This document shows positions 32,551 through 32,872 of a DNA stretch of 64,000 nucleotides, piece after piece. This stretch comes from a virus (Duplodnaviria > Caudoviricetes). How positions within the stretch are numbered: the stretch's first letter is position 1; the number at the start of each line of letters is the position of its first letter. Location of the stretch: positions 160,001 through 224,000 of IMG/VR virus record IMGVR_UViG_3300031134_000001. One strand, given 5' to 3'. The notes beneath the pieces are model-generated. The model made no database searches. It had not been told where the DNA came from and was given only the letters and a program-made list of their open reading frames with translations. The position numbers and the translations under genes are program-made.

Positions 32551-32796
32551 ATGCTTAAATCCATTACGACCTTTACCAAAAGTTCCATCGCTTCGCTTAA
32601 CTCAGCCCAGCTTAAAGCTTGTAACGATTTAGGCAGGGCAATTACAGGTGTGTGGAAAGTAAACGGCGATATTCGGGTAGTCCAGGTGGACAACAAAGAT
32701 TACCCGATGTATTACTGGAACGAAGACAAGTGGGTTAGTTTTACGCCCCTTGCTTTGACACCAACAGATTCCATAAAACGTACTGATGAGTCGTGA
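32551..32796 (+). CDS. hypothetical protein; 3' end overlaps hammerhead
   Basis: ATG 32551 after tRNA-Thr. Confidence 0.55.
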   Translation: MLKSITTFTKSSIASLNSAQLKACNDLGRAITGVWKVNGDIRVVQVDNKDYPMYYWNEDKWVSFTPLALTPTDSIKRTDES

Positions 32797-32872
32797 AAGT
32801 CGACGCCTACTTCGGTAGGTAAGGTTGCAAATCCTTCGAAACGCTCTTAGAGCGTCTACGATATCGGGACTT
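32766..32872 (+). ncRNA. type I hammerhead ribozyme variant
   Basis: Stem I CGTA/TACG, CTGATGA 32783-89, stem II GTCG/CGAC, two inserted hairpins, GAAA 32838-41, stem III CGCTC/GAGCG, GTC cleavage triplet (cut after 32856). Confidence 0.75.

Follow-up and report, generated by a model that had tools for sequence, protein, structure and literature searches.

The 64,000-nt window analyzed in this study, a stretch of a phage genome, carries at positions 32779-32860 of its plus strand an RNA motif that contains every base of the hammerhead core together with a GUC site and stems I, II and III. Sequence comparison supports its assignment well as a type I hammerhead that would descend from a common phage lineage and that has gained 33 nt between the CGAC and GAAAC segments of its ancestors. 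We lean towards the view that this insert-bearing member of the lineage would cut co-transcriptionally after C32856 and thereby release a structured RNA of ~345 nt carrying a 5'-OH end.

The architecture of the motif can be followed along the plus strand. The 5' strand of stem I (CGUA, 32779-32782), which is identical in the four haplotypes described below and paired in the MFE fold of the 91-nt RNA, is matched by UACG at 32857-32860, whose nucleotides would become the first bases of the released RNA. The core segment C3-A9 (CUGAUGA, 32783-32789) is defined by its alignment to the canonical hammerhead core in a covariance model termed R2, with N7 located at 32787. It is followed by stem-loop II (GUCG-UGAAAGU-CGAC, 32790-32804), where GUCG at 32790-93 pairs with CGAC at 32801-04, and by two consecutive hairpins that are both part of the MFE fold, namely hairpin b (GCCUAC-UUCG-GUAGGU, 32805-32820), with 6 bp and a UUCG tetraloop, and hairpin c (AAGG-UUGCAAAU-CCUU, 32821-32836), which is invariant in all haplotypes. 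Together with the equally invariant C32837, an alternative candidate for position C11.1, these hairpins constitute the 33-nt insert that separates stem II from the GAAA segment. The latter, comprising G12, A13, A14 and A15.1 (32838-32841), is located by the alignments to both R2 and the Rfam model RF03152, does not vary between haplotypes and leads into stem III (ACGCUC-UUA-GAGCGU, 32841-32855), whose 6 bp, also found in the MFE fold, include A15.1-U16.1 and are closed by the loop UUA. C17 at 32856 completes the GUC triplet as placed by the R2 alignment, with the predicted cut located between 32856 and 32857. The core is thus complete (C3 U4 G5 A6 N7 G8 A9 / G12 A13 A14 / H17) and surrounded by helices of 4 bp in stem I, 4 bp in stem II and 6 bp in stem III, with both G10.1-C11.1 and A15.1-U16.1 present. 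With its 4 bp, stem I is short and lacks a conserved tertiary partner. The resulting five-helix fold is the exact MFE structure of the isolated 91-nt RNA, with an energy of -24.1 kcal/mol. A preliminary description of this DNA had listed the same core elements, from CUGAUGA and stem II to GAAA, stem III, GUC and stem I, and all of them could be read where it had placed them; its cut after C32856 is likewise the one predicted here for an active motif.

The relationship to known phage hammerheads is reflected in the performance of R2, whose only sources were seven canonical phage hammerheads from IMG/VR, all unrelated to the phage studied here. On the window, this model detects the motif with 29.3 bits (E ~1e-6), and on the whole genome the motif is its sole match at E < 10, with the same 29.3 bits and an E-value of ~3e-6 whose calibration is rough. 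The scores of 100 metagenomic decoys preselected for the same core letters did not exceed 25 bits. Reciprocally, R1, the model of the motif itself, matches the canonical hammerhead of the unrelated phage L004 with 31 bits, and it finds no match in the available sequence of L134 and L136-L140, which are related at a greater distance. The same single site was obtained from a structural hammerhead descriptor run on both strands of the whole 271-kb genome, which in first-order Markov simulations scored 0.047 hits per genome, or 0.02 if stem III was required to contain at least 6 bp. The identity proposed in the preliminary description, a hammerhead with a two-hairpin insert, is supported.

The lineage in question was collected from IMG/VR by the pattern CUGAUGAGUCG-N4-10-CGACGAAAC, which retrieved more than 116 loci where essentially none would be expected by chance. 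These hammerheads share the signature CUGAUGA-GUCG...CGAC-GAAAC and comprise 61 unique type I ribozymes with abundant covariation in stems I and III. Their commonest loop II is UGAAAAUU, to which the UGAAAGU loop of the motif is similar in its UGAAA type, and the insert is absent from all of them. Among the matches listed, other insert-bearing hammerheads were not encountered in scans of IMG/VR with loop c fixed, with N7 other than U or with an exact 22-mer; a pattern scan of JGI metagenomes returned chance hits only among the matches listed, and a scan of GTDB genomes no real case among the matches listed. At Rfam gathering thresholds, no hammerhead family matches the motif, a result that is uninformative since the canonical phage hammerheads L002, L004 and L008 used as controls were missed as well. 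The hammerhead of L004 (2726-2782) is of type I and is located between two Twister-P5 ribozymes in the region 2300-3384 of this IMG/VR phage, where the same thresholds recover the twisters and not the hammerhead.

A pronounced feature of the motif concerns the geometry of its junction, whose strands are, unlike in a plain three-way junction, interrupted by 33 nt between C32804 and G32838. Since C32804 and C32837 are both cytosines, two placements of the insert are possible, one between 11.1 and G12 and the other between 11.2 and 11.1. The first placement, between C32804 and G32838, would create a five-helix junction, and the motif can equally be read with the insert inside stem II, as a four-way junction closed by G10.1-C11.1. 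The location of the insert 'in the core' given in the preliminary description is thus not compelling, as a position within stem II describes the sequence equally well. With no more than one unpaired base in the insert, a perfect four-way junction can form from stem II, hairpins b and c and the stack of core and stem III, a geometry that would keep stem II stacked on the core. By eye, the segment 32821-32837 (AAGG-UUGCAAAU-CCUUC), which spans hairpin c and the following cytosine, resembles the T arm of the tRNA-Gln of the phage at 32110-32126 (GAAGG-UUCGAAU-CCUUC); a tRNA fragment may have been the source of the insert, or the insert may form a T-loop-like module. The boundary between stem II and G12 is not known to accept insertions in hammerheads, and the hammerhead literature, as far as it could be searched, describes no large insert beside G12 and no branched stem II; the literature on jumbo phages, as far as searchable, describes no hammerhead. 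Perreault et al. (2011, PMC3088659) describe natural hammerheads whose stem II has two bp or only a single one, and small insertions into the core reduce activity (PMC3088659).

The genomic setting is that of a phage with a tRNA island. The window covers positions 160001-224000 of a virus record that has a length of 271,026 bp and direct terminal repeats and that we assign to a chimallin-encoding, nucleus-forming jumbo phage. Its ORF at 22603-24288 (561 aa) shares 89% identity with a protein of a related contig for which a match to the phiKZ chimallin family had been precomputed, with a PhiKZ major-capsid hit located nearby; a Pfam scan of the window's own 561-aa chimallin-like copy gave no match. 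In IMG/VR, neither the chimallin-like nor the tail protein retrieved a relative in single or alignment queries, the tail protein found no match in JGI metagenomes, and in the INPHARED phage collection only the tRNA-Thr was matched. RtcB and Rnl2-type ligases were not found in the phage genome, and neither was a ligase of the T4 Rnl1 type, in whose case the control had matched no control genome. With no RtcB or Rnl2-type ligase found, a link of the motif to ligation or circularization was dropped.

The tRNA genes of the island extend from 30730 to 32536 on the plus strand, and all of them share the strand of the hammerhead motif, which agrees with the placement of the motif on the RNA-island transcript in the preliminary description. 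Two tRNA-like genes at 30954-31080 and 31436-31553 are detected by the Rfam tRNA model with 55 and 49.5 bits, respectively; in both, inserts of ~50-60 nt replace the normal anticodon loop and ARAGORN makes no call. Weak hits of the tmRNA type are found at 31387-31404 and 31469-31513, close to these insert-bearing genes. Preceding the island, ~650 nt between a tail-like gene and tRNA-Tyr (30060-30720) contain no convincing ORF and are 92-95% conserved among relatives, and this region may represent another structured RNA. In the related contig L130 (14107-15340), and also in L131, L156 and L160, the tRNA-Thr gene is interrupted by a cassette of ~1.15 kb, with the gene of an HNH endonuclease, a further complete tRNA (14796-14866) and an ORF of 135 aa. 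This haplotype is also devoid of tRNA-Asn and tRNA-His and contains an extra tRNA at 15778-15861. In light of the cassette that splits tRNA-Thr and of this gain and loss of tRNAs, the island appears as a mosaic of cassettes.

Relatives of the locus were fetched as contigs via homologues of two proteins, the neighboring tail protein and one of 60 aa from the island, and they define four haplotypes, with A represented by the window, B by L130, L131, L154, L156 and L160, C by L141, L142, L157 and L158, and D by L155. Among public runs, close variants are found in samples of straw, dairy, wastewater, marine and phyllosphere origin, with the runs that contain the locus consisting of DNA data or of contigs only. 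All haplotypes share a block that extends from 32776, located 3 nt upstream of stem I, to the terminator at ~33207. It thus delimits a 432-nt module (32776-33207) whose neighbors on both sides differ among haplotypes and whose 5' end, its first 81 nt, is formed by the motif. The site is non-coding and located on the tRNA strand at a module boundary. No paralogue of the module was detected elsewhere in the phage genome.

The remainder of the module, on the same strand, has the properties of a structured non-coding RNA (32857-33207, 351 nt, or ~345 nt if counted to about 33195), as indicated by a folding z-score of -3.0 and by its conservation. It ends with a hairpin followed by a U run that resembles an intrinsic terminator (33169-33194, plus strand). 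All six substitutions found in this downstream RNA fit its consensus fold, including a compensatory double change at positions 32901 and 32915, and it matches no Rfam family.

The upstream boundary of the module bears on two features of the preliminary description, the overlap of the motif with the stop codon of an ORF and a distal extension of stem I. The orphan ORF (32551-32796, plus strand), which we consider to be outside the element, ends with the residues KRTDES, its last seven codons and stop are contained in the motif, and the UGA at 32794-96 is indeed located within loop II. For its product, P0001, searches of IMG/VR and of a set of 5.8 billion proteins retrieved no homologues. In haplotype B (L130/L131/L160), a segment of 237 nt (32539-32775) that contains most of the ORF is absent, and the CCA of tRNA-Thr is followed by the motif at a distance of 3 nt. 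The distal extension (32766-72 with 32866-72) is confined to haplotypes with the ORF, and in L130 the 5' flank is instead the end of tRNA-Thr. Both features are therefore real in the window and not conserved, and in view of the segment missing in haplotype B we regard them as accidents of an upstream insertion; a functional role of the overlap with the stop codon was rejected as the ORF is missing in this haplotype.

Within the common block, haplotypes A, B and C are 98.6-98.8% identical. The 14 constrained positions of the core are invariant across all four haplotypes, and within the core variation is confined to the free position N7 (32787, U or C). Outside the core, C to U at 32807 and A to G at 32809 convert a C-G and an A-U pair of hairpin b into U.G and G.U and keep the pairing, positions 32848 and 32849 in loop III vary, and a change of G to U at 32850 in L155 leads to the loss of the closing pair 32846-50 of stem III. 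The changes in the hammerhead stems are thus, apart from this lost closing pair, one-sided and wobble-preserving (32807, 32809), in sequences whose similarity of at least 95% in this part is too high for genuine covariation to show. Neutrality would predict ~1.7 substitutions in the core of these only slightly diverged haplotypes, where none is seen; the invariant core hence agrees weakly with a working hammerhead, at a divergence that is too small to decide. In haplotype D, the hammerhead part has diverged by 4.7%, the region 32861-33207 by 1.2% and the next gene by 15.3%, and overall the hammerhead part, with 2.5-4.7% divergence, is less conserved than the downstream RNA with about 1%.

The described features suggest how the motif might act. 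The module would be transcribed together with the upstream tRNA-Thr; no sigma-70-like promoter was found between the tRNAs and the module. The hammerhead would fold once nucleotides 32860-66 are made and cut after C32856. In general, hammerhead cleavage generates 2',3'-cyclic phosphate and 5'-OH ends. The upstream RNA with tRNA-Thr and ORF would consequently stay joined to the body of the ribozyme and end in a 2',3'-cyclic phosphate, and the structured RNA extending from 32857 to about 33195 would be freed with its 5'-OH. Such cleavage would have to win a kinetic race during transcription, as the segment 32859-80 on the same strand can pair with 32781-32802 and sequester the core in a competing structure (ALT). 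If folding is followed in a growing transcript, the hammerhead is the MFE structure for ends at 32860-66, and ALT takes over past about 32866-32870. In longer transcripts, ALT is ~6 kcal/mol more stable than the best fold that contains a hammerhead, and in all four haplotypes it is the MFE structure of the whole module. A more specific proposal, in which an active five-helix hammerhead with a four-way junction at the boundary of stem II and G12 is gated by the anti-core helix and makes the 5'-OH end of the ~345-nt RNA, is put forward tentatively, as we are inclined to doubt it slightly more than to accept it.

The stability of ALT is also an argument for an alternative that we regard as rather unlikely, although it deserves consideration, according to which the 33-nt insertion has killed catalysis and the segment now serves in the ALT conformation as the folded 5' domain of an uncut RNA of ~430 nt. 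In this conformation, the long helix between 32781-802 and 32859-880 closes a junction formed by hairpins b, c and III, and the core is complementary to 32868-77 over 10 nt, which exceeds chance with an estimated p of ~0.03. A loss of activity would also be in line with the absence of a precedent for an insert abutting G12 and with the impairment of activity by core insertions (PMC3088659). However, U32787C, a change seen in two haplotypes, disrupts a U-A pair in ALT and is neutral at N7 of the hammerhead, which slightly favors a ribozyme over a role in ALT. Against a dead ribozyme argue also the core bases, which are all intact despite the 15% divergence of the neighboring gene, and the order of events during transcription, where the hammerhead fold forms first.

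That the two folds exclude each other and leave a kinetic window could as well be taken to indicate that cleavage depends on a ligand, a protein, an RNA or the speed of transcription, with either the ALT helix or the insert, for example its invariant and T-arm-like hairpin c, as sensor. In this direction pointed the suggestion of an allosteric variant in the preliminary description, which was not borne out, since our searches revealed no ligand-binding motif, riboswitch family or partner. There is also no covariation that would outline a binding pocket, and we thus consider such regulation, an idea that is purely inferential, to be improbable. Even less credit is given to a chance resemblance, in which CUGAUGA, GAAA and GUC would occur together in a structured leader by coincidence. 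A loose descriptor does find 0.02-0.05 hits per genome in random sequence, and decoys with the core letters are numerous in large databases, but the E-value obtained with the independent R2 model for a match that is the only one in the genome and stands above all decoys, the exact signature of the lineage with GUCG and CGAC enclosing a UGAAA-type loop, and the position of the site on the tRNA strand, outside coding sequence and at the module boundary, make a coincidence very improbable.

To our knowledge, the role of hammerheads in phages and bacteria is largely obscure. The fusion of a hammerhead to a strongly conserved structured RNA within a tRNA island leads to the testable hypothesis that the ribozyme makes the 5'-OH end of this RNA. 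If the motif cuts, the hammerhead core would tolerate an insert of two hairpins in a four-way junction directly beside G12, and such tolerance, if true, would be of use in aptazyme design and in studies of ribozyme folding. An inactive motif would instead clearly exemplify a ribozyme that has been reused as a structural domain of an RNA. The gated five-helix arrangement would, if true, mean a new architecture for hammerheads and also a defined biological task for one in a phage.

Among known systems, the motif is closest in its features to the type I hammerheads of phages and prophages (PMC3088659 and the IMG/VR lineage), with which it shares the complete core, G10.1-C11.1, A15.1-U16.1 and the GUC site. 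With the IMG/VR lineage it has further in common an open stem I, which in that lineage has 4-7 bp, a closed stem III, the same stem II and a similar UGAAA-type loop, and it differs by its 33-nt two-hairpin insert, found in none of the >116 members. The best, although weak, match in Rfam is to the RAGATH-1 hammerhead (RF03152), whose model closes the position of stem II with a single G-C pair, behind which 44 extra bases of the motif are fitted as a loop. With 22.2 bits compared to a gathering threshold of 56.3 and an E-value of 0.34, membership in this family was rejected, and the upstream hairpin of RAGATH-1 is not convincingly matched in the motif. Extra nucleotides at the catalytic junction are found in HHmeta and HHphage from salterns and haloviruses, where they alter activity without abolishing it (PMC3088659); these inserts consist of 2-3 nt near C3 and stem I, in contrast to the 33 structured nt on the side of stem II and G12 in the motif. 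A different parallel is offered by the theta ribozymes, HDV-like RNAs that adjoin phage tRNA genes and are co-transcribed with tRNAs (Kienbeck et al., 2024, PMC10879173). Both systems place an RNA of the self-cleaving type within a phage tRNA array, with cleavage being predicted in case of the motif. However, theta ribozymes adopt another fold and cut at their own 5' end, thereby trimming the 3' trailer of a tRNA (PMC10879173), whereas the hammerhead described here would cut at its own 3' end and thus free the RNA located downstream.
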